A stretch of 64,000 nt of DNA, taken from a virus. Lineage: Duplodnaviria > Caudoviricetes. The DNA lies in IMG/VR virus record IMGVR_UViG_3300032321_001270, positions 32,001-96,000 of that record. One strand, given 5' to 3'. Each line of letters begins with the position of its first letter. Position 1 is the stretch's first letter. The position numbers and the translations under genes are program-made. The notes under the pieces were generated by a model. It was not told the origin of the DNA. It ran no database searches and worked only from the letters and a program-made list of their open reading frames with translations. This document shows positions 16,238 to 31,437 of this stretch, piece by piece.

Positions 16238-16275
16238 AACACGTGGCTTACCAGCAAGCAGCTAACACTGCTCAT

Positions 16276-16308
16276 TAGATATGACCGTTTTTTGCCCGAT
16301 ATTTAGCT
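16276..16308 (-). promoter_or_regulatory. Conserved bipartite phage promoter
   Basis: AGCTAAATA-N17-ATATCTA. Confidence 0.7.
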
Positions 16309-16333
16309 CTGGGCTTTGATAGCTAAACAAAAG

Positions 16334-16375
16334 CCTGCAGCCCCGGGGCTTGGGCAGCACCCGGGGACTTGCAGG
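16334..16375 (-). terminator. Intrinsic terminator
   Basis: cctgca..ccccggg/cccgggg..tgcagg stem followed by CTTTTGTTT. Confidence 0.65.
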
Positions 16376-16397
16376 ACTTTGTTGCCGCACTAGGCGA

Positions 16398-17033
16398 CTA
16401 GGCAGCGGCGAGAGCTTGCTTACGGGCCTCACCGATCACCTCCGCGCGGACGCCGGCCTTGAAGAACGTGTAGCACGTCTCCGCCAGCACGCCGCCGGTA
16501 ATGGCGCTCGTCATGATCGCCACCATCTTGGCGGTCTCCGTCGCAGCGCCGGCCGCGATGGCCACACCGCCGATGGTGGTGCCGACGAGGATGCCGCCCG
16601 TGATGGCGACACCGATCGCAGCCGCGCCACACAGGACGTTCACCGCCGAGACGCTGATGTTCTGGGAGGACACCAGCTCGACGATGTAGCCGCGGGCCGC
16701 CATATAGGCGTCCTTGGCCTTGCCGGTCGCCCAGCTCGCCTGTGCGGACAGCCAGTTCAGCGCCGCCGTGAGGAACTCCTTCATGGAGTTGTACACGTGG
16801 CCCATGAACTCGTACACGACGCCGGCGATCTCGACGACGCTCGACAAGAGCGCCTCCAGCGTTTCCGTCGCGCCGACCACGAGAGCCGTGATCGGGCCCA
16901 TCTCCACCGGCTTGGGGCGACGACGGCCGGTGCCGCCGAGACGGACAACCTTGCCCGTCTTGTTCTTCGCCTTGACGCCGCCGTGACCGCCGACCGTCTT
17001 CTTCGTCTTCGTCTTCATCTGAGGTTCTCCCAA
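16398..17033 (-). CDS. Hydrophobic Gly/Ala-rich membrane protein with basic N-terminus
   Basis: GGGAG SD; two long hydrophobic segments; visibly GC-rich codons. Confidence 0.7.
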   Translation of the reverse strand: MGEPQMKTKTKKTVGGHGGVKAKNKTGKVVRLGGTGRRRPKPVEMGPITALVVGATETLEALLSSVVEIAGVVYEFMGHVYNSMKEFLTAALNWLSAQASWATGKAKDAYMAARGYIVELVSSQNISVSAVNVLCGAAAIGVAITGGILVGTTIGGVAIAAGAATETAKMVAIMTSAITGGVLAETCYTFFKAGVRAEVIGEARKQALAAA

Positions 17034-17100
17034 AACATGGTTAGTTACACAGAAGCTCGGGTAACTTAGTCCGAGGACGCCAATAACACATTGGCATCAT

Positions 17101-17133
17101 TAGATATACCCGCTTTTCGGCTTTTATTTAGCT
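17101..17133 (-). promoter_or_regulatory. Conserved bipartite phage promoter
   Basis: AGCTAAATA-N17-ATATCTA. Confidence 0.7.
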
Positions 17134-17134
17134 A

Positions 17135-18304
17135 TTAGCCGAGATCGCGGGTCTTGAGCACCAGCTTTTCCTGCGCGGGCCATAACAGCATCTGCTGCAT
17201 GGTATCCACGCTGGTGACATCCTTGAGCAGCTTGAGGGCTACCTGCGGATTCGCCTGTATTATCTCTGGAGCTGGCTTCGCTTCCTTGCACGCCAGAGAT
17301 AAGTCTTCATGCCGGGTGAACGTATCCCACTTCCAATCTTTACCGTTCTTGGGGTTGTGCTTTTTCAGCTCCCCATTCAGGTAATGATTAGTTTGCACAA
17401 GGCCGTGTTTCCTTGTGCGAATGTAGGTATGTTCCCCGGTATGTGCTACGACCGTATGTTCCTTGGGTTGCGTGCCAACGACGTGTGCAAAGAATGGCAC
17501 CATCGTTCGCTGCGCGCGTAACCCAAGAATTAACTTCTCGTAGCTTGGCATCTTGTCGCAGACGGCTCTGACCCGGTGCAATGCGGGCCATGCCTGTAGA
17601 AACTGCGGAACCGATGTCACGGCGTTTGTCGCGTTCGCAAACACCGAAGTTAACGTACCCCACCAGCTGTCGTCGTTTTCCTCGTCTTCTTCTTCGTCAA
17701 CGAGGGACTTCACGATTGGAGCTTGGTTCACGACCAGACCCCATTGGTCGCTCATCGCGCTGACCACGCCCACCATGCCCGCAACGCCCACCGAAGTGTA
17801 GCTTTTGCGGCCGCGATGAAACCTGATCAGGCGCGTGTGCTTCCCTGTGGAAGGCGGCGTGACCCAGTCCATGTTGCGCACAATCATGGGGCTGGAATCA
17901 ACATCGAAGCTGGCGGAACTGCACCCACAACCGTACATCTCTGAAAGAGACGTAAAGTCATAGATTAAGTTCCCCAGCAGGAGTTTCCCCACAGGAACTT
18001 CAGCGTGCTGCGCAATGCAACTGAGTTCCTGCGGGTATTCGAGTCCGGCGCGCTCCAAGAGCCACCGGGTGATCGAGCCTCCGCCGCTTGCCAGCATCTT
18101 CACGGCAGCACGTGTGCTTTCGGAAAGATGTGGCAAGATGTCCTCGTCGATGTAATCTTCTACATCTCCGAGGATGGACTGAATTGCATCTCCGTTTTTG
18201 ATAGCAAAATCAGTCCAGCGCTCGTCTGGTGGTTCCTCCAAGTCGATGTCATAGATCTTCCCTGTGTAGAGTTTCATATGACACGTACTTTCTGGTTGAA
18301 CCAT
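17135..18304 (-). CDS. Ntn hydrolase, acid ceramidase/NAAA/C45-like
   Basis: YDIDLEEPPDERW N-terminus; GCGCSS nucleophile region; RNMDW; VQTNH. Confidence 0.75.
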   Translation of the reverse strand: MVQPESTCHMKLYTGKIYDIDLEEPPDERWTDFAIKNGDAIQSILGDVEDYIDEDILPHLSESTRAAVKMLASGGGSITRWLLERAGLEYPQELSCIAQHAEVPVGKLLLGNLIYDFTSLSEMYGCGCSSASFDVDSSPMIVRNMDWVTPPSTGKHTRLIRFHRGRKSYTSVGVAGMVGVVSAMSDQWGLVVNQAPIVKSLVDEEEDEENDDSWWGTLTSVFANATNAVTSVPQFLQAWPALHRVRAVCDKMPSYEKLILGLRAQRTMVPFFAHVVGTQPKEHTVVAHTGEHTYIRTRKHGLVQTNHYLNGELKKHNPKNGKDWKWDTFTRHEDLSLACKEAKPAPEIIQANPQVALKLLKDVTSVDTMQQMLLWPAQEKLVLKTRDLG

Positions 18305-18552
18305 TCACGCACGAACACTTCGGCCGTGGCCCTGAGCGTGACACCCTGAGCCAAAGCCATTTTCTCGACCGCCGCGAGTTCGGGGCCAAGGATCTTTTTC
18401 CAGTTTTCGACACACATGTCTGTGTGCCGCTGGATCTCTTCTTCCGTCGGGTTCTCTGGCGGAAACTCGGTTGGCGTGCTGATCTTGGCCAGATCCTGCA
18501 CTGCCACGTCACGCCGGTCACGCCGTTCTTCGCTGGTGATGAACCTAACCAT
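18274..18552 (-). CDS. Hypothetical protein
   Basis: AAGGAGG SD; lies downstream of a conserved promoter. Confidence 0.6.
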   Translation of the reverse strand: MVRFITSEERRDRRDVAVQDLAKISTPTEFPPENPTEEEIQRHTDMCVENWKKILGPELAAVEKMALAQGVTLRATAEVFVREWFNQKVRVI

Positions 18553-18620
18553 GGCGCACCTCCTTGGCTGCTTTAAGCGCAGCAGGACACAGATCTGCCC
18601 AATACACTACTGGGCGTCAC

Positions 18621-18653
18621 TGAATATGACCGGAATTGAGCTTTTATTTAGCT
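18621..18653 (-). promoter_or_regulatory. Conserved bipartite phage promoter
   Basis: AGCTAAATA-N17-ATATTCA. Confidence 0.7.
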
Positions 18654-18654
18654 A

Positions 18655-20148
18655 TCAGCGCTGGGCCGCCGGAACGATGCCCTGCAGCTGGCCCCACGTT
18701 CTGGCGTCGGTTGTCGGGCCGCCCCACGCAGTCAGATTTGTGCGAATCTTGTCGCCGGTGATCGTGTTGCTCATGTTTCGGCGCCCCATGCCGGCCATAA
18801 CGCGCTCGAACCTAGCACTTGCGTCAGCCAATGCCTGCTGGGCTTGTTGCGTATCGCCAAAGCGCGGAAAACCACCGGGAGCAGCGCCGGGCATACGCAT
18901 CCGTGCCGTAGGCGCTTGTGCCGGGCGCTTGTTTGCGCGCATGAGATAATTATGCACGTTTTCCATGATGTCTGGGTGGCGCATTAAGCTCTCACCGCGG
19001 GCTGCAGCGAGCGGGCCAGCCACAGACGGATGCACGTTGGCGATGTTTAACTTGGGGGCTACAGCCTTGGCCGCCGTATTAGCTACGGCCTTTGCGCCAC
19101 CACCAAATAACCGACCAAGGCCGCCAAAGTTGAGCCCGGCTTCTTTGCCAAACTCATACGCGCTGGAGCACTTGCAGTTCCATTTGCGCAGGGATTTATT
19201 AATGCGCGAGTCTGGGTCTTTCTTTGTATCGGCGCCAGTGTTTACGCGTTTCATGCCACACATCCGGGAGCAAAAAGAGTTCTGGCGCTTGGCCCGATCG
19301 CCTTTAGGATTGCTCTCGGTGACGGGTGCTTTCAGGTGGCCGCCCGTGGCTTTGTTATAGCTGGCGCGCCCCTTGGCGTTGAGGCCGCCTTCGTCATTCT
19401 TGCCGGCAGATCGTTGCCACGCAGGTGTGCCGGCCAGCTTTTCGCCGCCTGCTGAGTTCGCTGTACCAAGGGCGGCATTGCCATTGATATCACCCGTCGT
19501 GGACAGCCCGCCAAAGGCATTGATCGGGTTGGCGTTAGCCGAGTTTCCACCGCCTACAGGTGGCAGTTGACCCTCGGCGCCGGTGGGAGCAGGGGTAGCC
19601 GGGCTGGCGGCCTGCTGGGGCGCCTGTGGAGCTTGTGACTGCATCCCCATGGGCAGGGGCGTACCCATCGCGGGCATGGCGTATCGCTTAATTCCGGCGT
19701 TTGCAGGCACCATGGCGGCATCGCGGGCCTCCTGTTCAGCCTTTTCGTTCTCTAAAGCCTGCTGGATGGATTGCGATAACACTGCAGAAAGCTTCGCCAT
19801 CAAGCTGTTTACGCCGGTTTTGGGCATATTTCCACACCCACACGAATCCTGCTTGGTTTTCTTTACTTCTGTCTGTTCTTGGCCCGCATACGTTGGCTTT
19901 TCCCCCTGCGGCATAGCGACTCGGACCTCTGTAACCCCACTTTTCTTCAAGAACTTGGCGTAAATATCGAGGGCGACGGAGTTTACAGCAGATTGTTTAT
20001 TGTTTGTTTCCACAGGTTCGTCCTTTTTATTCTTATGCGCATACAGGGGGAGCTTTTTCTGGTTTGGATACTCATGCGCCCAGCGTTTCGCAATATCTGG
20101 ATGCTCGGCCCAGAGAAATCTGCGCTGCTTTTCTGACTTGAATGGCAT
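18655..20148 (-). CDS. Modular KxA-motif protein containing small conserved phage domains
   Basis: MPFKSEKQRRFLWAEHP module; PAWQRSAGKNDEGGLNAKGRASY...SFCSRM...KWNC module (DUF6321-like); YEFGKEA. Confidence 0.7.
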   Translation of the reverse strand: MPFKSEKQRRFLWAEHPDIAKRWAHEYPNQKKLPLYAHKNKKDEPVETNNKQSAVNSVALDIYAKFLKKSGVTEVRVAMPQGEKPTYAGQEQTEVKKTKQDSCGCGNMPKTGVNSLMAKLSAVLSQSIQQALENEKAEQEARDAAMVPANAGIKRYAMPAMGTPLPMGMQSQAPQAPQQAASPATPAPTGAEGQLPPVGGGNSANANPINAFGGLSTTGDINGNAALGTANSAGGEKLAGTPAWQRSAGKNDEGGLNAKGRASYNKATGGHLKAPVTESNPKGDRAKRQNSFCSRMCGMKRVNTGADTKKDPDSRINKSLRKWNCKCSSAYEFGKEAGLNFGGLGRLFGGGAKAVANTAAKAVAPKLNIANVHPSVAGPLAAARGESLMRHPDIMENVHNYLMRANKRPAQAPTARMRMPGAAPGGFPRFGDTQQAQQALADASARFERVMAGMGRRNMSNTITGDKIRTNLTAWGGPTTDARTWGQLQGIVPAAQR

Positions 20149-20337
20149 GGCGTAGCTCGTGATGGCGTGAACTTAAAGGAAATACCGAATAGTTCACGGA
20201 GTGCGGCTGTTCCCAAGCTGAATACGCCCATTTTGGCAGAAGAGGCGTGTGAAGAAAAGGGCGGGTAAGTGTGTCTGGTATAGTGAAGTTGATTTGTTAC
20301 ACACATCACGTCACTGAATGGTGACAAGGAGGGCGCC

Positions 20338-20661
20338 ATGCGGCTGCTATGGATTAGTTTACTTGCCCTAAGCTGCGTGATTGGTGCGGGAAGTGCTTTT
20401 GGTGAGAGCTTGTTGATGTTTTCTGCTGACTGGTGCAAATACTGTCAGAAAGCCAAGGCTGATCTGCTGGAGAAGCAAGACAGCGTACAGGAATGGAACT
20501 TGGATATTGTCGATATTGAACAAGAGCGCGAGTTAGCCCGGCAGTTTGCGCTCAAGAGTCTGCCCACGTTTATCGTACTGGACGACGACGGCCGGGAAAT
20601 GCGCCGGCTCGTTGGGTACCACGGTTTTGATAACTTAAAAGCGTGGGTCGAGAAGCGCTGA
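20338..20661 (+). CDS. Secreted thioredoxin-like protein
   Basis: AAGGAGG SD; signal peptide; WCKYC; LPTF (cis-Pro). Confidence 0.85.
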   Translation: MRLLWISLLALSCVIGAGSAFGESLLMFSADWCKYCQKAKADLLEKQDSVQEWNLDIVDIEQERELARQFALKSLPTFIVLDDDGREMRRLVGYHGFDNLKAWVEKR

Positions 20662-20673
20662 TAGCTAAAAAAA

Positions 20674-20703
20674 ACGGAGAGTAGGTTTGCCCTATCTCTC
20701 CGT
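20674..20703. terminator. Bidirectional terminator between convergent genes
   Basis: acggagag/ctctccgt stem flanked by A8 and T4. Confidence 0.75.
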
Positions 20704-21084
20704 TTTAATTCCAGTATTTTTCTCGCGAAATATGGGCGCTTCAAGTAACGTGACAACGATAAACTCCTCGTTACTAGATAAACTACAGTCGTAATAAATA
20801 GAAAGCACCGGGGTGTCCAACACAGCGAAAAAAGATTTAGTGAAATAATCTGCTCCAGCATTCACCATGAGACACCGGCGCACAGATTTCAATAAGTCAC
20901 TGTCGATGGCGGGTGTAGCGGCAAACCGTTTTTCGGTCTCTGTTAACATGCCCGAAATACGGACAACGAACATATCAGCTATGATGCACGTTTTTATGTT
21001 ACTTGCGCCTTTTCCCATGTATTGCTGCATGAACTTGTTTACTGCAACACATATGGCAGCTTCGGCTTCTCCTTGCGTATACAT
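20692..21084 (-). CDS. DUF2294 (Na-translocating decarboxylase subunit-like) protein
   Basis: TQGEAEAAIC...QQYMGKG...VVRISGMLTETE pattern of the family. Confidence 0.75.
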   Translation of the reverse strand: MYTQGEAEAAICVAVNKFMQQYMGKGASNIKTCIIADMFVVRISGMLTETEKRFAATPAIDSDLLKSVRRCLMVNAGADYFTKSFFAVLDTPVLSIYYDCSLSSNEEFIVVTLLEAPIFREKNTGIKTER

Positions 21085-21121
21085 ATAGGCTCCACGAAGA
21101 GTGATAAAGACCAGCGGACAT

Positions 21122-21154
21122 GTAATATGCCCGGGTTTTGATAACTATTCAGCC
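21122..21154 (-). promoter_or_regulatory. Conserved bipartite phage promoter (variant)
   Basis: GGCTGAATA-N17-ATATTAC. Confidence 0.55.
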
Positions 21155-21176
21155 AGAGAGCTAATAGCTAAAAAAA

Positions 21177-21212
21177 GCGCACGCAGGGTCAGGGAAGAAT
21201 ACCTGCGTGCGC
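21177..21212 (-). terminator. Intrinsic terminator
   Basis: 11-bp stem gcgcacgcagg/cctgcgtgcgc followed by T7. Confidence 0.8.
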
Positions 21213-21236
21213 TTTCGCCTACTTCGAGAACTAGCA

Positions 21237-21437
21237 TCAAGCCAGTACTTCGTCGTAGGTCTGTTCCAACGGGTTGATGATGAGCCGGGGCTTGGGCTCG
21301 GGAGCTGGTTTGGGAGGCGCAACTACAGGAGCCTGCCAGCGTTCAGTCAGGTCGGTCCACGCAGGATCGATCTTGACCTTCTCGCACACCCAGCCCACGA
21401 ACGCCAGACCACCAAAGACCATGCAGGCCGTGGCCAT
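21237..21437 (-). CDS. Small membrane-anchored Pro-rich protein
   Basis: N-terminal TM helix; lies between a promoter and a terminator. Confidence 0.6.
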   Translation of the reverse strand: MATACMVFGGLAFVGWVCEKVKIDPAWTDLTERWQAPVVAPPKPAPEPKPRLIINPLEQTYDEVLA

Positions 21438-21502
21438 GCTATTTCCTTTCTATAAAGCAGATAGAGGCCAGACGTAATTTTTGGCTTACGCCTCTCTATC
21501 AT

Positions 21503-21535
21503 CAAATATGCCCGACTTTAGGGCAGTATTTAGCT
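21503..21535 (-). promoter_or_regulatory. Conserved bipartite phage promoter
   Basis: AGCTAAATA-N17-ATATTTG. Confidence 0.7.
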
Positions 21536-21622
21536 TCACAGAAAGACAACGATGCTCAGGTCGTCATCATCATCGTCAAAGTCAAACTCGATGCCGTAGA
21601 TATGCTTGGATGCGTTTGTCAT
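21536..21622 (-). CDS. 28-aa acidic small ORF (not in ORF track)
   Basis: MTNASKHIYGIEFDFDDDDDDLSIVVFL; GAGGT SD; TATAAT at 21663-21668. Confidence 0.45.
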   Translation of the reverse strand: MTNASKHIYGIEFDFDDDDDDLSIVVFL

Positions 21623-21763
21623 ATCTGTACCTCGCGACGACAGGTTTCAAAAACGTGTCGCTATTATATCGTTTTGATAACAATTCCCTTTCTGTAAGAA
21701 AACCGTATACGGCTTTCTTACAAAAGAAATGACGTAACATGTTGTCAAATAACAAGTTACGTC

Positions 21764-22441
21764 TAATAGCTAAAAAAATCCTGCACGGTGGGCCCGAAGG
21801 CCGCCCGCGGCGTCGTACTGCTGAGCGCAACCCAGCAGCCGTACGCCTCCGATGTGGCGGACTTGGTAGTCCGAGCCCCGTGTGTGGATTAAACACGTAG
21901 GGGCTTTTTAGTTCGTCCTCGGGTTGCGGCGTTCCTTGGGAACGACTTAGACAACCTGTAACAAACCATATCCACGTAACTCTCCTGACGATAAAGACGT
22001 TTCAGGAGAGCCAATGCGTCGGCGCTCTAAAGCAGTACACCGACGGCAGAGAATTCGCGCACCAAAGAGGCGCGTTCCCGGGCTACGTTGCCATAGCTCC
22101 AGCACACACAATTACGGATTGTTACTGCCGTGGCGCCTCCGTATGGTGTTGTGCAGTACACCGGGCGTCCACGAGCAGGCCGAAGTTTCATCGGCACCCT
22201 ATTGTTTAACGTGATAGGTTGGCACGGTACGTTCTTGCGCTGGCAGCAGCTTTCACGGCTTCTTCAGTTACGATTCCTCGCAACTTTATTACCGTGTGGA
22301 CTGTACATACGCAGCCCGAACCTCCCATGGAAGCAGCATGGACGGGGGAGGCTCCATGCCGCGCTATGACCAACCATCAACCGCCGCTGGCTGTCACACT
22401 CAGCCAGCGGAAGACGCAGAGTCTCACACAAACTCTGCGTC
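21764..22441 (-). ncRNA. Candidate large structured ncRNA
   Basis: About 670 nt without a credible ORF; at least 10 hairpins including UUCG and GGAA tetraloops; ends in a T7 tract. Confidence 0.45.
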
Positions 22442-22669
22442 GATGACGGTGTAGCTGTCGTACTCTTCCTGCAGAAGAGCCGCAGCATCACCGTCAAGAA
22501 TTGCAGCCTCGGCGGGAATGCAAACGCAGACGCCGAGTTCCAGCCCGCAGTGCAGGCAGTGTTCAATGTCCGTGTCGGGCGGCGCAATGGCCACGGCGAA
22601 CACAAACAGCATGTCCCGGCAGTCGTCCACGTTGACCTTCACCGCCGGGTTGTTACGGAGCTGACTCAT
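22424..22669 (-). CDS. Hypothetical protein
   Basis: AAGGAGG SD. Confidence 0.65.
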   Translation of the reverse strand: MSQLRNNPAVKVNVDDCRDMLFVFAVAIAPPDTDIEHCLHCGLELGVCVCIPAEAAILDGDAAALLQEEYDSYTVIDAEFV

Positions 22670-22687
22670 TTCAATCCTCCTTGAAGA

Positions 22688-22840
22688 AATAAAACAACCG
22701 CCGTCTCGTGGCGGCTCACGCTAATGGTCTCTCGCCATTAGACGGCCCCACCTATCACCGGGCAGGGGGTACGGCGAGGGGTGCTATAACTTCATGCGTA
22801 AAGCCAGTGGATGTACCACTGCCGCGGCAAGAGCTATAGG
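22688..22840 (-). ncRNA. Candidate ~150-nt structured RNA or attenuator leader
   Basis: Lies between the promoter at 22848-22880 and a terminator-like hairpin at 22697-22714 plus T-rich tract. Confidence 0.45.
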
Positions 22841-22847
22841 CCCTCAA

Positions 22848-22880
22848 TAGATATGCCGCGTTTTTGGCAGATATTTAGCT
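22848..22880 (-). promoter_or_regulatory. Conserved bipartite phage promoter
   Basis: AGCTAAATA-N17-ATATCTA. Confidence 0.7.
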
Positions 22881-22884
22881 ACTG

Positions 22885-22954
22885 GCTAATAGCTAAAGAA
22901 AGCGTACGCTTTGCGGAGCCGTCGCCTCCGCTGCCCACAAATTAATAACGCCCG
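22885..22954 (-). terminator. Repeated hairpin/terminator element, copy 2
   Basis: Same 23-bp core and same layout as 15874-15940. Confidence 0.6.
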
Positions 22955-23493
22955 GCCTCTTCTTCGTCGGCCTCGTGCTCGGCTTCCGCCCATTCAGCCT
23001 GCCGCTCTGCCAGCGCTTTATCATCCAGCCCGAACGTTTCAAGTTCCAGCTTTTTCCTGCGCGCTTCGCGCTCAGCCTCCGCCTCTGCCTCTTCATATTG
23101 CATACGATCCTCGCGCATGCGATCTTCAAATTCAAGATCTTCAAGAGAGATGTCGTGCGCCTCGGCTTCAAGCTCTTCTTTCTTTTCACGGTCTATGGCG
23201 ATGTAAAGCTCCGCCTTGACCGCGTCAAGTGAAAACGCGCCCTGCGGGCAAAAGCAATTGCGGCTACCGTACGTAGCGTCACTCAGATGCACGTACTTGT
23301 AGCCGCGCAACTCAAGCAGCTCAACCAGCGCCATTGCCGTATAAGGATCGGCAGCCGTACCAACGTACTGGCGACCCACGCTGTATACACCATCATCGGC
23401 GTTCTTAATGCCGTGAACGCGCATGCTACCGTCGGGGAAGGTAATCATGTGAACCTTTCTAAAAAAAATTACAAGCTTAAATTGAGATAGCAA
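22942..23493 (-). CDS. Hypothetical protein with Glu-rich coiled-coil C-terminus
   Basis: ORF; start possibly MITF, about 23448. Confidence 0.6.
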   Translation of the reverse strand: MLSQFKLVIFFRKVHMITFPDGSMRVHGIKNADDGVYSVGRQYVGTAADPYTAMALVELLELRGYKYVHLSDATYGSRNCFCPQGAFSLDAVKAELYIAIDREKKEELEAEAHDISLEDLEFEDRMREDRMQYEEAEAEAEREARRKKLELETFGLDDKALAERQAEWAEAEHEADEEEAGRY

Positions 23494-23718
23494 AAAGTCT
23501 GCTGGGCCTTAGCCAGCTTTGTGCAATACAAGCATCCCGGGCAGACTTATGCCCGAACAGCTTCACCGCCCCGCGGCAAGGCCGGCAAACCGAAGTTTGC
23601 CGCTAAGGTGTCTGAAGGAGAGCTGATATCCTCGGCGTTCTTTTAGTCGGGCTCATGAGACCCGCCGTTCAAATAGAGGGGCTATTTGCGCGAAACGCCT
23701 CGTACTGTGAATTAAAAA

Positions 23719-24077: not shown

Positions 24078-24179
24078 GAAGTCTGCTCGTTACAGCCCTC
24101 TGCATGCACCTAGAGATAGGTTCATACACATGCTTCTCACGAGCGCTTCTTGTGCCAACAGCAGTGACAGTTTAGTAAC

Positions 24180-24323
24180 TTAGCTGATCTGGTCAATCGC
24201 CCGCACAATCGAGGCGGCATAGCGCTGGCTGATCTCGTCTGCCTCGCCGCCGTCATACTGCACGTGAATCTCGCGTTCCCATTTCAGGACCGCTGCCCGG
24301 ATCTGCGCCAGAGATTTACGCAT
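24180..24323 (-). CDS. Small hypothetical protein
   Basis: MRKSLAQ... start just after the upstream stop. Confidence 0.45.
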   Translation of the reverse strand: MRKSLAQIRAAVLKWEREIHVQYDGGEADEISQRYAASIVRAIDQIS

Positions 24324-24333
24324 TGATTTCAGC

Positions 24334-24648
24334 TCAATCTCCGGTTCGGTCTTGTACCTCGTCCCGCTCTTCGTGTTCACTGTCGGTTCCAACGCTGCTT
24401 TCTCCTTGTGGACTACTTCCTGCCACCATTGGTTGTTCCAGTTCGTCGCCGTCCGTGTCGCTGGCATCTGTATACGCTATTAACAGCGCTTCCTTGAGGG
24501 TGTCGATCAGGGTGTTAGCGCAATCATCCACGACTTTACGCAGATGATCCATTCTGTCAATCGTTTCGCGCATCTCGTCTCTGGTTTTCACCAGTACCTC
24601 AGCGAGTTTGAGCAGTCCTTGCGCCATTGCTAACGGTAGTTCTTCCAC
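24334..24648 (-). CDS. Hypothetical acidic coiled-coil protein
   Basis: AAGGAG SD. Confidence 0.6.
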   Translation of the reverse strand: MEELPLAMAQGLLKLAEVLVKTRDEMRETIDRMDHLRKVVDDCANTLIDTLKEALLIAYTDASDTDGDELEQPMVAGSSPQGESSVGTDSEHEERDEVQDRTGD

Positions 24649-24660
24649 GCAGTTCTCCTT

Positions 24661-24990
24661 TTACCGTAGGTCATCGAACGATTCTTTTAAGCCCACTGCC
24701 CGGTCTGCCAAGTACTGGGCGACAAGAGTCATCACGTCAATAATGCCTTGGTTCTCGTGTACACGCCGGGCTTCCGTGGGCGAGTACGCGCCAAAACACG
24801 TCACGCTAAGCAAGATAGGGCGAACCTTTTCTAGCGCTTTTACATCTGTCAGATCTGCAGGCGAGAAACCAGCGTCGGTCACCTCGATTGACTCGATGTG
24901 GCCTAGTTGGTCACCAATCATGCCGTCTTCCAGCGCGTGATTGCAGGCATCACGCAACGCTTCCACGAACCAGCGGCAGTTCTGGTTCAT
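24661..24990 (-). CDS. Hypothetical protein
   Basis: ATGA start/stop overlap with the upstream gene. Confidence 0.65.
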   Translation of the reverse strand: MNQNCRWFVEALRDACNHALEDGMIGDQLGHIESIEVTDAGFSPADLTDVKALEKVRPILLSVTCFGAYSPTEARRVHENQGIIDVMTLVAQYLADRAVGLKESFDDLR

Positions 24991-25289
24991 GACGCCACCT
25001 TCTCAGCGGGTTTGACGCTATCAGCAATCTGGTCGCGCAGCTGGCCCTCAGCCTCGGCCCACTTGTCGAGAATGAGGTTGGCGAGCGGGCTGTTGACCTT
25101 CTGCAAAAACTCCTCGATCTCAGGGGCCAACGCCGCCAGCGCCAGCAGCTTCGGCTCACACTCACAAGTGTTGCCGATCTCCAGCACATAGTGTCCGGCC
25201 TCGTCCGCGATGGAGCCGCGGACGTGGTGGTGGCTGGGCATCGAACCCAGCGCGCGCAGTGCAGCAAAAAGCATAGATTGCTCCTTCAA
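24987..25289 (-). CDS. Hypothetical protein
   Basis: 4-nt overlaps with neighbours on both sides. Confidence 0.65.
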   Translation of the reverse strand: MKEQSMLFAALRALGSMPSHHHVRGSIADEAGHYVLEIGNTCECEPKLLALAALAPEIEEFLQKVNSPLANLILDKWAEAEGQLRDQIADSVKPAEKVAS

Positions 25290-25495
25290 GGGTAAATGGG
25301 GTAAATCTTCTCATTGAACGCCACGAACGCCGGTATTCCGTGCTCGTTTGGCAGCCGGGCTGCCGGATCATCAACGACATGATCGTCGACCTTTACACGA
25401 CCCTCAACGATCGCGCGCCGGGCCATAGACGTGTCGATGTTGGCGCACTTTGACAATACATCAACCAGTGGTGTGGTAGCCATAATTAGTCCCAC
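25286..25495 (-). CDS. S4-like RNA-binding domain protein
   Basis: LVDVLSK...SMARRAIVEGRVKVDDHVVDDPAARL matches the S4 pattern. Confidence 0.7.
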   Translation of the reverse strand: MGLIMATTPLVDVLSKCANIDTSMARRAIVEGRVKVDDHVVDDPAARLPNEHGIPAFVAFNEKIYPIYP

Positions 25496-26148
25496 AGGGC
25501 TTGGTAGTACTTACCGAACAGAGTCGTTCCACGGCGGATACGCTCCTCGTGGGCCTGAAGACCGTCATAATCGCATTTCAGCTTTCTGAAGCCTTCGGGC
25601 CACTTATCAACATCGGGCAAATCGTCGCGGCCTTCCCAGAACTTATCGTCATGATTTGAGTCGTTCAACTGCTCGAATGCCCAAATCATTTCGCCCATGA
25701 TCCACTCCCACCGCTTGTCATGAAGCTGGTCGGGAGTACCGCAATTCTTTTCTTCTTCTTCGGTCAACGCCGGTGCAGCGCTGGACCGAAGTTCTTCCGG
25801 GACGTCCGTGTCGTCTGTGAAAGGATAACCGTGCTGGGTCGCCTGCAGCTGCTTGAGCAACGGCAGAATGATGGGCGCCAGCGTGCTATCGATATTCCAC
25901 GTGTCATAGTCGTGGATTTTGATAGCAATACGCCGCGTCCGAAACCGCGAATGAAACCACTCGCAAAACGCGTTCAGCCACGTCTTGCTCAGCCGCTTTC
26001 CGATCTCGTGGCAGCGGTCCTCGGACACGCCCACATACTGCAGCAGGTCAGCCAGCTGATACGGACCAGTCCAGCCCGGATAGGGGCCAATGTAAACCTT
26101 CATGAATCCTCCCTGAAACGAGGCCAATCGTGCGCACAACTCGGACAA
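25486..26148 (-). CDS. Conserved phage hypothetical protein
   Basis: IHDYDTWNIDSTLAPII...HGYP...WEWIMGEMIWAFE...LFGKYYQALWD, recalled from T4-like phages. Confidence 0.7.
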   Translation of the reverse strand: MSELCARLASFQGGFMKVYIGPYPGWTGPYQLADLLQYVGVSEDRCHEIGKRLSKTWLNAFCEWFHSRFRTRRIAIKIHDYDTWNIDSTLAPIILPLLKQLQATQHGYPFTDDTDVPEELRSSAAPALTEEEEKNCGTPDQLHDKRWEWIMGEMIWAFEQLNDSNHDDKFWEGRDDLPDVDKWPEGFRKLKCDYDGLQAHEERIRRGTTLFGKYYQALWD

Positions 26149-26396
26149 CGCCAGAAACTCACGCCGTCGTAATGATCTGGATGGTCATACGACAACTGCA
26201 CACCAATGAGACGGCTAAACTTATACGGGGGTGAATAATGCTCCCGTATCCACGCGTGCAGCTCCTCATCACTCTTATTGTCGCACCACGCTTGCGAACG
26301 TAGCGCGTCAAAGACATCGCCGGCATCCCAGTTAACACCGCATTCCGGGCACCGGCCGAATGGGTCCAACTTTGCTGTCTCTTCATTAAGTCGCAT
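26100..26396 (-). CDS. Zinc-ribbon protein
   Basis: CPECG and CPSCA pairs; start 26396 overlaps the upstream stop. Confidence 0.6.
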   Translation of the reverse strand: MRLNEETAKLDPFGRCPECGVNWDAGDVFDALRSQAWCDNKSDEELHAWIREHYSPPYKFSRLIGVQLSYDHPDHYDGVSFWRCPSCAHDWPRFREDS

Positions 26397-26637
26397 CGGC
26401 AAGCTCCTTCTGCGTGACGACGATAAACGAATCTTTCCCCGGCAACAGCGCCAAGCCGCGGCCGTTATCCCAGCGCACTGAGATCTGATGCCACTCTCGC
26501 GGGCCTTCAAAATTAACGGCGATAATCGTACCTTCCAATCCGACTGGCATATCCTTTTCAATAGGCATCCAATCAGAGTTCGGGTTGAGCATCGGTCCAG
26601 TTAATTTAACTCGCTGGCCGACTGCGTACGGTTCCAT
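26386..26637 (-). CDS. DUF4314-like protein
   Basis: GQRVKL...GTI...ISVRWDNGRGLALLPGKD. Confidence 0.65.
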   Translation of the reverse strand: MEPYAVGQRVKLTGPMLNPNSDWMPIEKDMPVGLEGTIIAVNFEGPREWHQISVRWDNGRGLALLPGKDSFIVVTQKELADAT

Positions 26638-26672
26638 AACTGACTCCTGGGTGAGTAGATATCAAAAAAACA

Positions 26673-26721
26673 GGCGAGCCGGGCTGAGGCATGGCGAAAC
26701 ATACCCCAGCCCGGCTACGCC
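26673..26721 (-). terminator. Intrinsic terminator
   Basis: gccgggctg/cagcccggc stem followed by T7. Confidence 0.7.
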
Positions 26722-26733
26722 AACAACACGCCG

Positions 26734-27333
26734 TCAGTCGTTCAGCAGCTCGGCGAGACGTTTGATCCCGCCGTGCCGCAGCACGAGACGGGTCACCGGG
26801 GCACGCTTCTTCTTGACAATCCGCGTAGCCAACTTCTTCACCGACACCTTGAACTTGTGCACAGCCGCCTTGGCCTTGCGCTTCTTCTTGCCCTGTGGGC
26901 TGGCCTGCTCCCGATGACTTTCCGACATCGGATTCAGCCTGTACAAGCCCGGGGGCAGCTTCCATCGGCCGTTGGGCCGATCGAACTTCCTGATCTGCGC
27001 ACGCAGACAGCCGGGCGTGGTGAACCGCACCTCGATCTTCTTTTTGACGTCGAAGATCTTGGTGATACCAGCGCCGATCTGGTAATCGAACTGACTGCCT
27101 GTTGCTTCGTCGAGCGCAAGCGCGACGACGCAGTAGCGGGCATCACCCGGCACAGCGTCAGCGATGTGCTGCGCTGAGATGTTGAACCAGAACGGTTCTC
27201 GGGCCAGCACGATCGTCCAGCTGGGATCGACCTCGTCCTTGAACGAGTCGCCCATCGCCCGAAGCGGCGAAGACGTATAACGATGTCGCTTGTGCACACC
27301 GTCCTTACGCGTCTTCTTATTATTAACAGCCAT
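26734..27333 (-). CDS. Basic hypothetical protein
   Basis: GGGAG SD; Lys/Arg-rich C-terminus; GC-rich codons. Confidence 0.65.
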   Translation of the reverse strand: MAVNNKKTRKDGVHKRHRYTSSPLRAMGDSFKDEVDPSWTIVLAREPFWFNISAQHIADAVPGDARYCVVALALDEATGSQFDYQIGAGITKIFDVKKKIEVRFTTPGCLRAQIRKFDRPNGRWKLPPGLYRLNPMSESHREQASPQGKKKRKAKAAVHKFKVSVKKLATRIVKKKRAPVTRLVLRHGGIKRLAELLND

Positions 27334-27767
27334 GACAGAACGTCTCCCTACGTTTCATCGAACCACTGAACAACCCACGACAACGTGCCGAGGGCAAGAA
27401 AAAAAACCGGGCGGGCCCTTTACGGTCCGACCCTATAACCCAAGACTAGCTGCAGCTCTTCTTGGAACCCCTCCACGTCGGCAGCACGCCACGAGATTCC
27501 CCGCAACGATAGCCAAAGGTAAGGAGTACCCGGTTAAACAACGTTGTGACGGACACGCAGGCCGTCACGGGATATAGGACTTCGGGCTCATGCGTGAATA
27601 TTTGCCCCAGTTTCCCGGCTAACCTTTTTGAGGCGCCTTCGTCCACTACGTTGTTGTTCGAGACCCGGCTGTTAATTCAGCAATCTTACCCGTTGAAAGA
27701 TAAGACGCGGACGCAATGCCGCGGTGTTAATTCACTTCACTACCCGATGAAGGATAGTTCCGGGCTA

Positions 27768-28112
27768 TGGAGGCGGCGGGAGTCGAACCCGCGTCCAGAG
27801 ATATCTCCAGAAAGAACGTCTACGTGTGTAGGCAGTTGTTGTTTACACTCTTGCCAAAGTTAGCCGATTATCGGCGTCAGGTGGGCTACCACCATCTTGC
27901 CCTTTCTTACTGGGCCAGATCAGCCGATTATCGGCGTCAACCTGATTGGGCAATAAGGCTCAGGTCGCCTCACTCACTGGCCTATTAACTAGGCAGCGAG
28001 GGCCGGTGCAAAAGCGCCAGCTAGAAACGTAATCGGCTTTTAACGTGGCCAACCGATCAACCACGACACGCAGTCCTAACCTTCCTTATCCTGTCGATAC
28101 CAGTACGCCCCC
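27768..28112 (-). ncRNA. ssrA: tmRNA; predicted tag AGAFAPALAA
   Basis: 5' GGGGGCGTACTGGTATCGAC; pseudoknot 1; tag frame ending LAA-TAG; 3' GGGTTCGACTCCCGCCGCCTCCA. Confidence 0.93.
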
Positions 28113-28336
28113 GTATTGTTGTTGGCCATATTCCCATTGTGAGGCTGCGGCGCTGGTGGGCGCCTGCGTTTACCGCCAGCTCTTTTTAACGTAATTTATC
28201 TGGCGGCACCAACAACAAATTGAAAATCTCGCCGCAGGGATGTGGTGATTACACGTAGTTGCTACGCTCCCACGCACATTGAGGCTCATAACTTCCCCCT
28301 GCATTTCGCATCGCTGTACACACGCTGCCGAGACAA

Positions 28337-28410
28337 TAACCCGGGTGGGAGTCGAACCCACAACAAGTAGATCCTAAGTCTACCGCCTCTGCCAGTTGTG
28401 CTACCGAGTT
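28337..28410 (-). tRNA. tRNA-Leu(TAG) with short variable loop
   Basis: Cloverleaf; gtaga-CTTAGGA-tctac; 5-nt variable region. Confidence 0.8.
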
Positions 28411-28547
28411 AAAAATTGATGAGTGTCGATTAGGGGTCGCTTCCGATATACGAGCCACGTGGATAGGCATACCGGGAAATCGAACTTAAAACCTCACTAC
28501 CTCCTGCCGGGGATCAGCCGGAACAGTTCAATGGTTTTACTCATCAA

Positions 28548-28620
28548 TGACCCCACGGGGATTCGAACCCCGGTAAACGGAACGAAAATCCGTTGTCCTA
28601 GGCCACTAGACGATGGGGCC
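28548..28620 (-). tRNA. tRNA-Glu(TTC)
   Basis: Cloverleaf; acgga-TTTTCGT-tccgt. Confidence 0.9.
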
Positions 28621-28629
28621 ATTGTCGTC

Positions 28630-28815
28630 TCAGTCTACCTTCTCGACGTTTAGCGCGATAAGAAAACCACACATTTGCGCGAACGTGATCAGCTGCTTCT
28701 CTTTGAGTTTGAAGAAATCTGCAAAGTGAGTAAACAGATCACAAGGCGACAGATCTGTCGGGTTTTGCGTTTCGCGCAACTTAGATATCAATTCAGCGGC
28801 TCTTTCCAGCGTCAT
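28630..28815 (-). CDS. Small hypothetical protein
   Basis: AAGGAG SD before MTLERAAE. Confidence 0.55.
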   Translation of the reverse strand: MTLERAAELISKLRETQNPTDLSPCDLFTHFADFFKLKEKQLITFAQMCGFLIALNVEKVD

Positions 28816-28851
28816 CTTCTTGCTCCTTCGTGTAAAGATAACAAAACTCAT

Positions 28852-28922
28852 TGGGCCGCCAAGGAATCGAACCTTGCGTCGCGAGTTAATAAGACTCGCT
28901 TGCCTACCAGTTTCCGCGGCCC
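28852..28922 (-). tRNA. Atypical tRNA-Ile(TAT) or tRNA-like element
   Basis: Perfect acceptor, T and anticodon stems; loop CTTATTA; short unpaired D region. Confidence 0.6.
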
Positions 28923-28985
28923 GCGTGGGCGGGGCGCCAGCAGCTTGGGCTACTGCCAGCGCCCCGCCGTCAGCGAGTCTAACGC

Positions 28986-29330
28986 TTACCGATAGCGCTT
29001 GCACGCATACCAGCGGCCATCCCTGCCTCGCGCGACCCCTTGATCAACAACCCTCATTCCGCTGCGGCTGTAGCAGCAGTTATTCAGAGCCTGCTCGGGC
29101 GTGGAACCGGCGCCAACACCCTCGTAGCCTGAATTACCACCACAGTGCCCCATAGCACCGCGACTTGCCTGCATCTCTGCGACGCCTTGCGCCGTAGAGT
29201 TAGTGTAGGCATAGCTGCGCACAGACGGGATTGGCGTCGAACTGGTATAGCGTCGTACTACAACAGGGCCGTCGGCATGCGCAACGCCGACAACAGAGAG
29301 CGCCAATAGCGAAAGAAAAACGCGAATCAT
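28986..29330 (-). CDS. Secreted minimal CAP/SCP-like protein
   Basis: Signal peptide; MGHCGG..YEGVG..NNCCY..GVARG..GRWYAC. Confidence 0.55.
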   Translation of the reverse strand: MIRVFLSLLALSVVGVAHADGPVVVRRYTSSTPIPSVRSYAYTNSTAQGVAEMQASRGAMGHCGGNSGYEGVGAGSTPEQALNNCCYSRSGMRVVDQGVARGRDGRWYACKRYR

Positions 29331-29392
29331 ACGATCCTCCGTGACAAACCAAACAAACCACAGCCCGGAACATTTCTGCGCCGGGCTGACAG

Positions 29393-29466
29393 TAGGCGCA
29401 AAGGGACTCGAACCCCTAACCCCCTGCGTGTAAAACAGGTGCTCTGACCAATTGAGCTATGCGCCT
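29393..29466 (-). tRNA. tRNA-Val(TAC)
   Basis: Cloverleaf; cctgt-TTTACAC-gcagg. Confidence 0.92.
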
Positions 29467-29472
29467 GCGAGT

Positions 29473-29829
29473 CTAACCCGCGTGTTCTAACTCTCGACGA
29501 CGACGTGCTCGTGCCCAAGGCGACCGATTCCAATACCAGCCCCGCCAACGATTGCAATATCCACGCCACCGCCGGCGCAACTTGTGATACCACTTGTTGC
29601 GGCCGATGGTGGTTAAATAATGCTGCGTCCAGAAGCTCATCGACTCGTCCGATGTTCCGTCGATATAGCTTTCCCCGCAATCGAAGCACCGATTCGCCGG
29701 TACGCGAAACACCGGAACTTGGTGTTGCTGTCCGTCAATCAGCATCGACATGACGTCATTGAATTCAACGGCTTCAATACGCCCACCGCAGTGCATGCAC
29801 TTTAACGACTTGTAAATTGGCTTACCCAT
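29473..29829 (-). CDS. YgiT/MqsA-type zinc-finger protein
   Basis: CMHCGG...VPANRCFDCGESY. Confidence 0.65.
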   Translation of the reverse strand: MGKPIYKSLKCMHCGGRIEAVEFNDVMSMLIDGQQHQVPVFRVPANRCFDCGESYIDGTSDESMSFWTQHYLTTIGRNKWYHKLRRRWRGYCNRWRGWYWNRSPWARARRRRELEHAG

Positions 29830-29841
29830 GTCGCCCTCCAA

Positions 29842-29926
29842 TGGCCAAGGCGGGAATCGAACCCGCACGGGAAGTTATTCCCAGCGGATTTTAAGTCCGC
29901 TGCGTCTGCCGTTTCGCCACTCGGCC
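29842..29926 (-). tRNA. tRNA-Leu(TAA)
   Basis: Cloverleaf with long variable arm; gcgga-CTTAAAA-tccgc. Confidence 0.95.
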
Positions 29927-29935
29927 AACCGCCTG

Positions 29936-30280
29936 CTAAACCAGCGCCGGATCTTCCCGCTCGGCGGGAGCAGGATACTTGTCGGGGTGACCGATGTGCA
30001 TGAACTTATCGCGCCCCGACCGACTATGCGTGCCGCATCCTGATCGCAAAATCATTGCTTCCTTGAAGTACTGATACACGCGATCGATGTCCAGATACTC
30101 ACGATACGTCAACCCAGCCTCCAATTGCCGCGGCCGATCCAGCATTTCTCGCAGCGTATTCAAATGCTCGGCGATCTTGTCGTTGTAGTACTCGGCCGTC
30201 GTTTCCAGATCATCTTTGCCGTTGTTGATCATACACGTACCTCTTGTCCCCAATTTGACACCACCAACGCTGCCCATCAT
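29936..30280 (-). CDS. Hypothetical protein (start possibly MINNG)
   Basis: ORF between tRNA genes. Confidence 0.5.
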   Translation of the reverse strand: MMGSVGGVKLGTRGTCMINNGKDDLETTAEYYNDKIAEHLNTLREMLDRPRQLEAGLTYREYLDIDRVYQYFKEAMILRSGCGTHSRSGRDKFMHIGHPDKYPAPAEREDPALV

Positions 30281-30440
30281 TCCAGTAGATGGGTGTAACA
30301 GACGCTGACGGGGGTTGCAACTCGGTCGGTTTCGGGTGGGCTTTTTGATACTCTTCGTAGCTTTCCCACGCGATTCCGGCCAACATCAGCAACGCCGTGA
30401 TCAACCCGATTAAGTTACCTTTAATCTCGATCCCCTTCAT
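30210..30440 (-). CDS. Small membrane protein
   Basis: AAGGAGG SD; N-terminal TM helix. Confidence 0.65.
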   Translation of the reverse strand: MKGIEIKGNLIGLITALLMLAGIAWESYEEYQKAHPKPTELQPPSASVTPIYWNDGQRWWCQIGDKRYVYDQQRQR

Positions 30441-30486
30441 TTCAAACCTCCTTGTTTAGAAATGAAACCCAAAAAGAATCCCCCAA

Positions 30487-30560
30487 TGCCTCCTCTAGGA
30501 TTCGAACCTAGGACCAACGGATTAAAAGTCCGATGCTCTAACCAGCTGAGCTAAGGAGGC
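30487..30560 (-). tRNA. tRNA-Lys(TTT)
   Basis: Cloverleaf; tcgga-CTTTTAA-tccgt. Confidence 0.95.
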
Positions 30561-30593
30561 CCAACGTTTAACGCCTGTTGGTGGCGAAGCGCT

Positions 30594-31157
30594 TTACCGT
30601 GCGCCAGCGTTCGTGAGGCGGCATGAGCCGTCTTGGCACGCAGGACCGGCCTGCAATTCCTCACGAGTTACCTCACGGACGTTGCCGCCCATCAGGTGTG
30701 CTTTCCACTTGCCGCGCACTTTGTGCAGGACAAGTTCAAACTCGCACAACTCCCACGGCGGAAGCATAGCTGAGCGCGAGCGAAACTCGGAGTACGGGAG
30801 GTCTTTGTCATCTTCTCCGCCGGCAAGAGTTTCTTGCACGACTTTGACGGTGACTGTTTGTCCGTACTCGGTCATCTCGGCAGAAACGAAGTCAACAGAT
30901 ATAAGCCGCGCATACACGTCAACCTCGTCAAAAAACTGTTTGAGTTCTTTGACAAAAGTTTCTCGATTAGGTGTGTAGGGCGTCATCGTATCCATTACCG
31001 CGTCAACATCCTCGGCGTTGCTAGCGGCGAGGTTTTGTTGAACGACCGTCTCGATGAGCTGCATTTCTTTTTTGCCGCGAGCGTTTAAACCCGCAGCGGA
31101 AGCAATGCCGGCCATCATCAGAACAGTCAAAATTACAGAGGTCACAACTTTAATCAT
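30594..31157 (-). CDS. Secreted NTF2/SnoaL-like protein
   Basis: Signal peptide; NLAASNAEDVDAVMDT helix followed by beta strands. Confidence 0.55.
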   Translation of the reverse strand: MIKVVTSVILTVLMMAGIASAAGLNARGKKEMQLIETVVQQNLAASNAEDVDAVMDTMTPYTPNRETFVKELKQFFDEVDVYARLISVDFVSAEMTEYGQTVTVKVVQETLAGGEDDKDLPYSEFRSRSAMLPPWELCEFELVLHKVRGKWKAHLMGGNVREVTREELQAGPACQDGSCRLTNAGAR

Positions 31158-31338
31158 CTCGCTGACTCCTTGTTAAACAGATGTGAGCAAAGCCGCCGCA
31201 AAGCGCCCAGCCCACAAATGCGCCCGTTACGTCTACCGCTTCTCCCATTTGGAAGGACCGCGCTGCTTCTAGCCCAAGAACAGCGCCGGCCACGGTACAC
31301 GCAACGATCAAGATTTCACGGACAATCGGGTATGGCAT
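31150..31338 (-). CDS. Small two-TM membrane protein
   Basis: AAGGAGG SD; hydrophobic hairpin. Confidence 0.6.
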   Translation of the reverse strand: MPYPIVREILIVACTVAGAVLGLEAARSFQMGEAVDVTGAFVGWALCGGFAHICLTRSQRDD

Positions 31339-31401
31339 GTCATCCTCCTTGCACCGCCCGAATGTGTGCTATATCCACGAACACATATTCGCGGGGCACA
31401 A

Positions 31402-31434
31402 GGAATATGCCCGATAATTAGCAGAAATTTAGCA
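31402..31434 (-). promoter_or_regulatory. Conserved bipartite phage promoter (variant)
   Basis: TGCTAAATT-N17-ATATTCC. Confidence 0.6.
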
Positions 31435-31437
31435 CGT

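Follow-up and report, generated by a model that had tools for sequence, protein, structure and literature searches.

Promoters recognised by phage-encoded sigma factors are known from SPO1 (gp28 and gp33/34), T4 (gp55), and phiEco32 (gp36), whose sigmas redirect the host core enzyme and define temporal classes of many genes. Other large phages, such as phiKZ and AR9, possess multisubunit RNA polymerases of their own (virion and non-virion, of the beta/beta' type) and short conserved phage-specific promoters (PMC7598289; PMC5449584), and their enzymes work without a sigma-70-family subunit (PMC7824862). A 2021 survey of jumbo phages recorded a polymerase without a sigma, or a sigma without a polymerase, the combination of the two not being recorded (PMC7824862). 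Such a combination is encoded by the uncultured phage analysed here, represented by a 205,188-bp virus record of IMG/VR (IMGVR_UViG_3300032321_001270). This work deals with a bipartite motif, CTAAAT-N17-YATATY (Y, pyrimidine), repeated in the intergenic DNA of this phage and mainly in the window under analysis, i.e., the 64,000 nucleotides (nt) from base 32001 to base 96000 of the record. As judged from the sequence, its nine genomic copies are very likely to be promoters; the interpretation that we favour, with a probability of roughly 0.6, is that they form one class of promoters whose reader is the sigma factor of the phage itself, probably together with the phage polymerase.

Two further systems lend themselves to comparison. 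The nearest cultured relative is Salmonella phage Arash (OQ632216), which likewise has its own beta (gp206), beta' (gp216), and sigma (gp10) proteins, the polymerase being 32% identical over 96% and the sigma 30% identical. Beta, beta', and sigma are abundant in purified Arash virions, as revealed by mass spectrometry, and the same paper reports no promoter analysis (PMC10585845). In T4-like phages, the PeSL (promoter-early stem-loop) cassettes consist of a repeated stem-loop terminator and a conserved promoter that bracket small, mostly unknown genes in a hypervariable region (PMC2839356; PMC4122927); the units are kept from one close relative to the next, but with other cargo genes.

The repeated motif and its conservation

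The phage genome has a G+C content of 54%, and nearly all of its genes lie on the minus strand; on the basis of gene calls from a simple codon-usage caller made for this analysis, intergenic DNA accounts for 10.7% of it. The window contains five exact matches to AGCTAAATA-N17-ATATY, each of them on the minus strand (16278-16308, 17103-17133, 18623-18653, 21505-21535, and 22850-22880); no match arose in 100 dinucleotide-preserving shuffles. When two mismatches were allowed, exactly two additional sites appeared, carrying GGCTGAATA (21124-21154) and TGCTAAATT (31404-31434), which brings the window total to seven versus 0.3 expected. The bipartite minus-strand motif described in the original prediction, with five exact copies and two named variants, is therefore real; the upstream ends of the 33-nt spans quoted there agree with ours, while their downstream ends extend 2 nt further.

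A weight-matrix scan of the whole genome disclosed exactly nine sites, seven in the window (P1 to P7, Table 1) and two outside it (genome positions 162837-162882 and 97431-97476, both on the minus strand), so that the seven copies originally counted hold for the window and the genome actually has nine. The scores are bimodal, dropping from 25.5 to 6.8 bits after the ninth site. All nine occupy intergenic DNA and have the orientation of the coding strand, no site being genic or antisense, and most of them precede small exchangeable accessory genes; since the matches are confined in this way, the objection that the motif might be equally frequent inside genes or on the opposite strand does not hold. 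With the spacer left free between 17 and 21 nt, CTAAA...YATATY matched these sites alone, except for the GGCTGAATA copy, in which CTAAA is missing; the eight matches are identically spaced, all intergenic, and all on the coding strand. Neither the weight matrix nor the search with a 17-21 nt spacer revealed any weaker or differently spaced copy elsewhere in the genome. The same motif family was retrieved by an independent repeat finder, and a literature search on the motif strings returned unrelated primer sequences only.

The motif is kept in at least 16 related phage records. It is present in all ten IMG/VR records whose sigma is 72-87% identical to that of this phage: six near-complete genomes harbor eight to nine copies on one strand (with the exception of one genome having seven reverse matches and one forward match), and four fragments harbor one or two copies each, the reversed-pattern controls giving 0-1. 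More distant relatives were reached through a sigma alignment. Among six records with a sigma identity of 64-72%, five contain 7-10 copies, all on one strand, and a 75%-complete one contains two, with controls at 0. At 53% identity, one record possesses three copies of a shifted form, CTAAAA...GGCATA, and at 42% another one possesses one or two copies of the motif, whereas the counts do not exceed the control in Arash, in Arash-like records (sigma 25-30%), or in Vibrio phage D69. Two relatives have terminal repeats of 123-127 bp; as this is about the length of assembler k-mers, neither the genome ends nor an early region were located from them.

As a separate observation, Arash has a repeated intergenic signal of its own, TGGTATAAG(T/A)AA...TGT, also written (T)GGTATAAG(T/A)AA...TGT, without a fixed -35-like block. 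This signal precedes genes, being present in about 26 of the 91 regions considered, and is not described in the Arash paper.

In order to describe the anatomy of the motif, a column table was built from 48 distinct sites of this genome and its relatives, taking the C of CTAAAT as position 0. The arrangement CTAAAT plus 17 bp plus YATATY is found in all 48 sites, with no variation in spacer length, confirming the invariant 17-nt spacing noticed earlier. The invariant letters are C0, T1, A3, A4, T5, G21, A24, T25, A26, T27, and T32, with A2 in 47 sites and G33 in 44 (A in the remainder); position 22 takes G or T, and C or T occupies positions 23 (48/48) and 28 (46/48). The spacer has an A/T patch at positions 14-16, and the ending seen previously is present in the form CGG(G/T)(C/T); apart from the patch and CGG, the spacer letters are variable.

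If the transcription start is set at position 35 (the uncertainty covering positions 33-36), CTAAAT spans -35 to -30 and is followed by the 17-bp spacer, G21 falls at -14, corresponding to the G of an extended -10, and YATATY spans -12 to -7, so that position -11 is A and position -7 a pyrimidine. The motif thus fits the contact map of the sigma-70 family, since its invariant letters land on the -35, G-14, and -10 positions. The -10 hexamer is near-canonical, its CATATT form sharing four of six letters with TATAAT (A-11 and T-7 included); the -35 hexamer CTAAAT is foreign (two of six matches to TTGACA), and of the TG of an extended -10 the T varies among the sites. Downstream, the invariant T32-G33 lies 5-6 nt past ATAT, near the start expected in the original prediction (about 6-8 nt), and fits the preference of bacterial polymerases for a pyrimidine at -1 and a purine at +1.

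The hexamer TATAAT itself occurs 13 times in the genome, counting both strands, versus about 60 occurrences predicted from base composition by our own arithmetic, and four of the 13 are in coding-strand intergenic DNA. This scarcity may represent avoidance of host-type -10 elements.

The motif had originally been likened to the sigma-28 consensus, TAAA-N15-GCCGATA(A/T). TAAA and ATAT do resemble that consensus, sigma-28/FliA promoters (TAAA-N15-GCCGATAA) share with the motif the upstream TAAA, an A/T-rich downstream end, and a similar spacing, and CATA recalls sigma-E/K promoters; a host alternative sigma, of the sigma-28/FliA or of the sporulation type, might therefore be the reader. However, since position 23 is C or T in 48/48 sites, the CGA core of GCCGATAA is absent from all of them, and the spacing is off by one, the best alignment requiring N16. 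Membership in the sigma-28 class consequently fails, and the sigma-70 layout fits at least equally. Moreover, the motif is constant in phages from many samples, it would be unusual for a phage to tie its accessory genes to flagellar or sporulation control by the host, and the phage sigma scores 22 bits against FliA models with a cut-off of 190, i.e., it shows no specific affinity. A host alternative sigma is therefore highly improbable.

Other promoter types were also considered and discarded. A sigma-54 promoter has GG and GC doublets 10 nt apart (-24/-12); the motif has GG-N10-TG instead (GG in 35/48 sites), and only 1/48 has the C that a GC doublet requires at position 34. A T4-type late promoter (TATAAATA, gp55) does not account for a second invariant block at a fixed distance, nor for a sigma-like gene having regions 3 and 4. 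Regarding hairpin promoters of the N4 type, the stem potential around the -35 block (3.44 versus 3.10 pairs) and in the spacer (2.69 versus 2.53) is not clearly above a cross-site null built from non-orthologous arm pairs, and the compensatory-looking changes in these two segments are individual cases recognised by eye only. No match to PF00940 (T7-like polymerase) was obtained, although the control of this search was silent, so that it is weak evidence. If read as a plus-strand (antisense) promoter, the motif has no acceptable -10 and no plus-strand genes. Lastly, an NTG at the conserved T-G might be the start codon of a leaderless message, but the frames at P2 and P3 reach stops after 15-19 codons, so the T-G was judged incidental in this respect.

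The phage polymerase and sigma factor as candidate readers

The search for phage sigma and polymerase genes, suggested together with the original prediction, revealed that both are encoded. In a 1471-amino acid (aa) protein (genome 14964-19379), Pfam recognises beta domains (Rpb2_6, 180 bits) and, after them, Rpb1_2, the catalytic beta' domain; Rpb1_5 is recognised in a 617-aa protein (genome 12103-13956). The two proteins form the single two-chain beta/beta' polymerase set of the genome. The sigma-70-family protein (273 aa) is encoded on the minus strand at genome positions 183119-183940 (L013:7119-7940). Its Pfam match to Sigma70_r3 (38 bits) is above the cut-off and that to region 4 is weak; it aligns to SigA/RpoD from region 2.2 through region 4.2, and the PDB matches of its AlphaFold model (mean pLDDT 70) are sigma factors only. 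No further Sigma70_r2 match was detected in the phage, which has one sigma-like gene only. This gene is located within a block of tail/baseplate genes, and the Arash sigma gene is also found among structural genes.

The locus hence displays the features of a sigma-70-family bipartite promoter class: two blocks, a fixed and variable-sequence spacer of about 17 bp, an intergenic position on the coding strand, and an encoded sigma with regions 2 and 4. In the mechanism that we propose, the repeats would be strong promoters specific to this phage lineage, with CTAAAT acting as the -35 element, a 17-bp spacer with a central A/T patch, G-14, and YATATY as the -10 element; initiation would occur at, or just after, the invariant T-G, and the reader would be the 273-aa sigma in a holoenzyme with the phage two-chain polymerase. 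The interpretation given in the original prediction is, on the whole, supported in part, namely for the promoter-like behaviour of the motif and not for its sigma-28 affiliation.

Compared with the promoters read by the sigmas of SPO1, T4, and phiEco32, the motif is similar in being a lineage-specific, host-unlike consensus repeated before phage genes in a phage encoding a sigma-family protein; it differs in that the core enzyme is phage-encoded as well and in that the class has about nine members. Like phiKZ and AR9, this phage is large, encodes a beta/beta'-type polymerase, and has phage-specific promoters that are short and conserved. In contrast to them, it has a sigma with regions 2-4, and its motif is bipartite with a -35-like block, whereas the phiKZ/AR9 promoters are single short elements near -10 (on the template strand in the case of AR9).

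Not all observations speak plainly for the phage sigma as reader, and some weigh against it. The recognition helix predicted in its region 4.2, ITPGAVSQRAAKIQ, stays the same in relatives down to 53% identity, differs at 42%, and has an unrelated sequence in Arash; this co-conservation with the motif is expected of a cognate sigma-promoter pair, but equally of shared descent alone. Region 2.3 reads VRTHLLSQLQ versus FSTYATWWIRQ in SigA, and the usual aromatic residues, which are thought to drive -10 melting, are missing, so that the DNA-opening ability of this sigma is in doubt. Five of the nine units reach a terminator within about 1 kb, and for this reason the class cannot drive the core genes. 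Furthermore, k-mer enrichment in the upstream regions of three genomes disclosed no second conserved promoter class, returning only halves of the motif, the terminator box described below, ribosome-binding sites, and tRNA words, and footprinting against two relatives revealed scattered TATAAT-like or TGnTATA-like conserved blocks without a common class. Given that weaker copies of the motif are missing and that the core genes are not driven by it, the phage must use other, unrecognised start signals.

Finally, the -10 part, G-N2-ATAT-Y, could be near enough to an extended -10 for the primary sigma of the host. In that case the host polymerase would read the extended -10-like G-N2-ATATY, and the AGCTAAAT box would either be bound by a phage activator (MotA/AsiA-like, as at T4 middle promoters) or act as a weak -35. 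The four letters shared by CATATT and TATAAT and the position of G21 at -14 are in agreement with this possibility, and so is the presence of ATAGCTAAA, in inverted orientation, at terminators without a nearby promoter, which would fit a DNA-binding protein independent of sigma. In addition, the PeSL promoters of T4-like phages are early promoters read by the host sigma (PMC2839356; PMC4122927). However, neither the AsiA nor the MotA family was detected in the phage, the T of the extended -10 is not conserved, and CTAAAT is far from TTGACA; in the hypervariable region that houses P1 to P7 (window 15.7 kb to 31.4 kb), sigma-70-consensus promoters are not enriched (seven found versus 9.7 expected), and a full polymerase as well as a sigma is encoded by the phage itself. 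Reading by the host enzyme is, on balance, rather unlikely.

Terminators, 5' stem-loops, and exchangeable cassettes

The coordinates of the sites and of the elements surrounding them are reported in Table 1.

Table 1. Candidate promoters, 5' stem-loops, and boxed terminators in the window (aa, amino acids; for the terminators, short coordinates are given in the last column).
Feature	Window coordinates	Strand	Score (bits)	Description
P1	16272-16308	-	48.2	AGCTAAATA, 17-nt spacer, ATATC, TAA, TGA; upstream of 85-aa gene 15941-16198
P2	17097-17133	-	51.7	1 nt past TAA of 380-aa gene; upstream of 206-aa gene 16398-17018
P3	18617-18653	-	46.4	1 nt past TGA of 497-aa gene; upstream of 92-aa and 380-aa genes
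P4	21118-21154	-	42.3	Variant GGCTGAATA; upstream of 130-aa MpsC-like gene 20692-21084
P5	21499-21535	-	43.6	Upstream of 66-aa gene 21237-21437
P6	22844-22880	-	55.1	Best consensus match; upstream of 81-aa gene 22424-22669 and of a 641-nt structured stretch poor in open reading frames
P7	31398-31434	-	45.8	Variant TGCTAAATT; upstream of 62-aa and 187-aa genes, then 5 tRNA genes and tmRNA gene
5' stem-loop of P1	16256-16273	-		Begins at conserved G
Equivalent 5' stem-loop	17076-17098	-		
Equivalent 5' stem-loop	18597-18615	-		
Equivalent 5' stem-loop	21460-21500	-		
Equivalent 5' stem-loop	22829-22845	-		
Equivalent 5' stem-loop	31351-31399	-		
Terminator ending P1 cassette	15873-15919	-		Hairpins and T-run, then box AGCTATCAG; 15873-15884
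Boxed terminator ending P2 cassette	16316-16375	-		8 nt upstream of P1; 16316-16327
Boxed terminator ending P4 cassette	20658-20702	-		20658-20669
Boxed terminator ending P5 cassette	21161-21212	-		Directly upstream of P4; 21161-21172
Boxed terminator ending P6 transcription unit	21763-21808	-		21763-21774
Boxed terminator directly upstream of P6	22886-22931	-		Hairpin repeats that at 15899-15930; 22886-22897
Boxed terminator of ninth-promoter unit	63634-63686	-		TTTAGCTATTG; promoter just past window end, genome 97431-97476; 63634-63644

P2, P3, and P5 directly follow a stop codon, and P1, P4, and P6 follow an intrinsic terminator. These terminators have a conserved box, AGCTAT(C/T)(A/G)G, after their T-run; a genome has about eight or nine boxed terminators, none of them off the coding strand, and relatives G005 and G006 have kept them. 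Within the box, TTTAGCTAT is complementary in reverse to ATAGCTAAA, which forms the upstream edge of the promoter in its P2/P3 form; a termination aid, a protein site, and an exchange site are all possible roles. Composite terminator-box-promoter units are formed at P1 (with 16316-16375), P4 (with 21161-21212), and P6 (with 22886-22931).

The leaders, considering the few that were measured from the conserved G to the start codon, are about 75-175 nt long. In eight of the nine sites a stem-loop starts at the conserved G or within 3 nt of it, P4 being the sole copy without one. In the whole family, 71% of the 48 sites have a stem-loop of -8 kcal/mol or lower starting in the first four bases, versus 17% in shuffles and 17% in the next 36 nt. 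If initiation occurs at the T-G, the transcript would begin with this stem-loop, which would probably protect its 5' end; by analogy with the 5' hairpins known to stabilise transcripts, a stem-loop at such an extreme position would be in keeping with a transcript starting there.

The genes associated with the promoters differ among relatives. Flanking core genes are 75-83% identical, while the cargo is absent or 33-43% identical: two close relatives lack the genes that follow P1, P3, and P4, and those after P5 and P6 are present in one relative only, with 42-43% identity. In the accessory region as a whole (window 15700-33000), the cargo proteins of 85 aa, 92 aa, 130 aa (MpsC-like), and 168 aa have no counterpart where the core proteins of the relatives are 75-90% identical. 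Most cargo proteins belong to no family, the exceptions being the MpsC-like protein and an AAT/NAAA-like hydrolase, the latter recognised by a Pfam match in the 380-aa gene after P3. The single regulon originally envisaged consists largely of terminator-promoter cassettes in the hypervariable region. Most copies belong to terminator-box-promoter units that bracket small accessory genes and would provide each cargo gene with its own start and stop.

Since these units bracket accessory genes in a hypervariable region, they might also work like PeSL cassettes, the repeated units offering sites for cargo exchange. The two systems are alike in their layout and in the turnover of the cargo. The differences are that the promoter mismatches the host sigma-70 consensus (both in its -35 element and in the lack of consensus enrichment), that the phage is Arash-like rather than T4-like and has its own polymerase and sigma, and that an extra conserved box, TTTAGCTAT(Y)(R)G, follows the T-run.

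Alternatively, the repeats might not be promoters in the first place, and might represent recombination or operator sites at the cassette borders, or RNA processing signals in read-through transcripts. The ATAGCTAAA core occurs in both orientations at gene boundaries, the repeats persist while the cargo differs, decayed copies exist, and P2, P3, and P5, having no upstream terminator, would be transcribed from upstream. On the other hand, a recombination site needs neither a fixed two-block spacing, nor an invariant T-G, nor a strict orientation relative to genes, nor a 5' stem-loop, and the hairpin tests on the -35 block and the spacer are not clearly above the null; cassette exchange is, moreover, compatible with promoter function and no replacement for it. 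A primarily non-promoter role is therefore quite improbable.

Some additional elements were encountered in the surroundings of the units. The repeat finder detected two decayed promoter-like copies at window 20608-20642 and 15763-15794, one inside the 3' end of the region's only plus-strand gene (107 aa) and the other just upstream of a 656-aa gene. A match to the Rfam abiF RNA motif (window 41660-41695, minus strand; 44.6 bits, gathering score 37) adjoins a terminator-like T-run followed by AATATCTAATGAG, a copy of the promoter's -10/start half that lacks CTAAAT. After the 81-aa gene of the P6 unit and before the boxed terminator, a 641-nt stretch (21780-22420, minus strand) contains no coding-strand open reading frame longer than 56 aa and has a folding energy of -291.8 kcal/mol versus -239.7 +/- 8.5 in shuffles. 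It has no match in Rfam, in the relatives, or in INPHARED phages, and may be a cargo RNA or a decayed gene. Downstream of P7, five tRNA genes (Leu-TAG, Glu, Val, Leu-TAA, and Lys; 28336-30560, minus strand) and a tmRNA gene (27765-28112, minus strand; 119.7 bits in Rfam) are found, the latter with an atypical 25-residue tag predicted by ARAGORN.

Meaning for phage transcription

On the basis of virion packaging in Arash and of the early promoters of PeSL cassettes, we infer by analogy that the class is an early one. A more specific and tentative proposal is that a virion-delivered holoenzyme, composed of a fused beta-beta'N chain, a beta'C chain, and a sigma without the usual melting aromatics, recognises CTAAAT-17-G..YATATY and fires the exchangeable cassettes immediately after infection.

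The motif represents a first candidate recognition sequence for a phage beta/beta'-plus-sigma transcription machinery. The clade possesses a polymerase and a sigma, Arash is its sole close cultured relative, and nothing has been published on the recognition sequence of the enzyme; a sharp motif conserved in the lineage is thus a directly testable template. If the enzyme-promoter pair were orthogonal to the host polymerase, it would provide a compact expression module. The terminator-promoter cassettes, for their part, extend the idea of PeSL modular gene exchange beyond T4-like phages.

With a 40-bp promoter, the polymerase, and the sigma, one could ask whether a sigma without region 2.3 aromatics opens DNA, and the answer might also tell if a -35/-10 logic applies to phage polymerases of this kind. 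If the proposal of a virion-delivered holoenzyme were true, no earlier phage multisubunit polymerase would have been shown to recognise a classical -35/-10 promoter by means of a sigma of its own.

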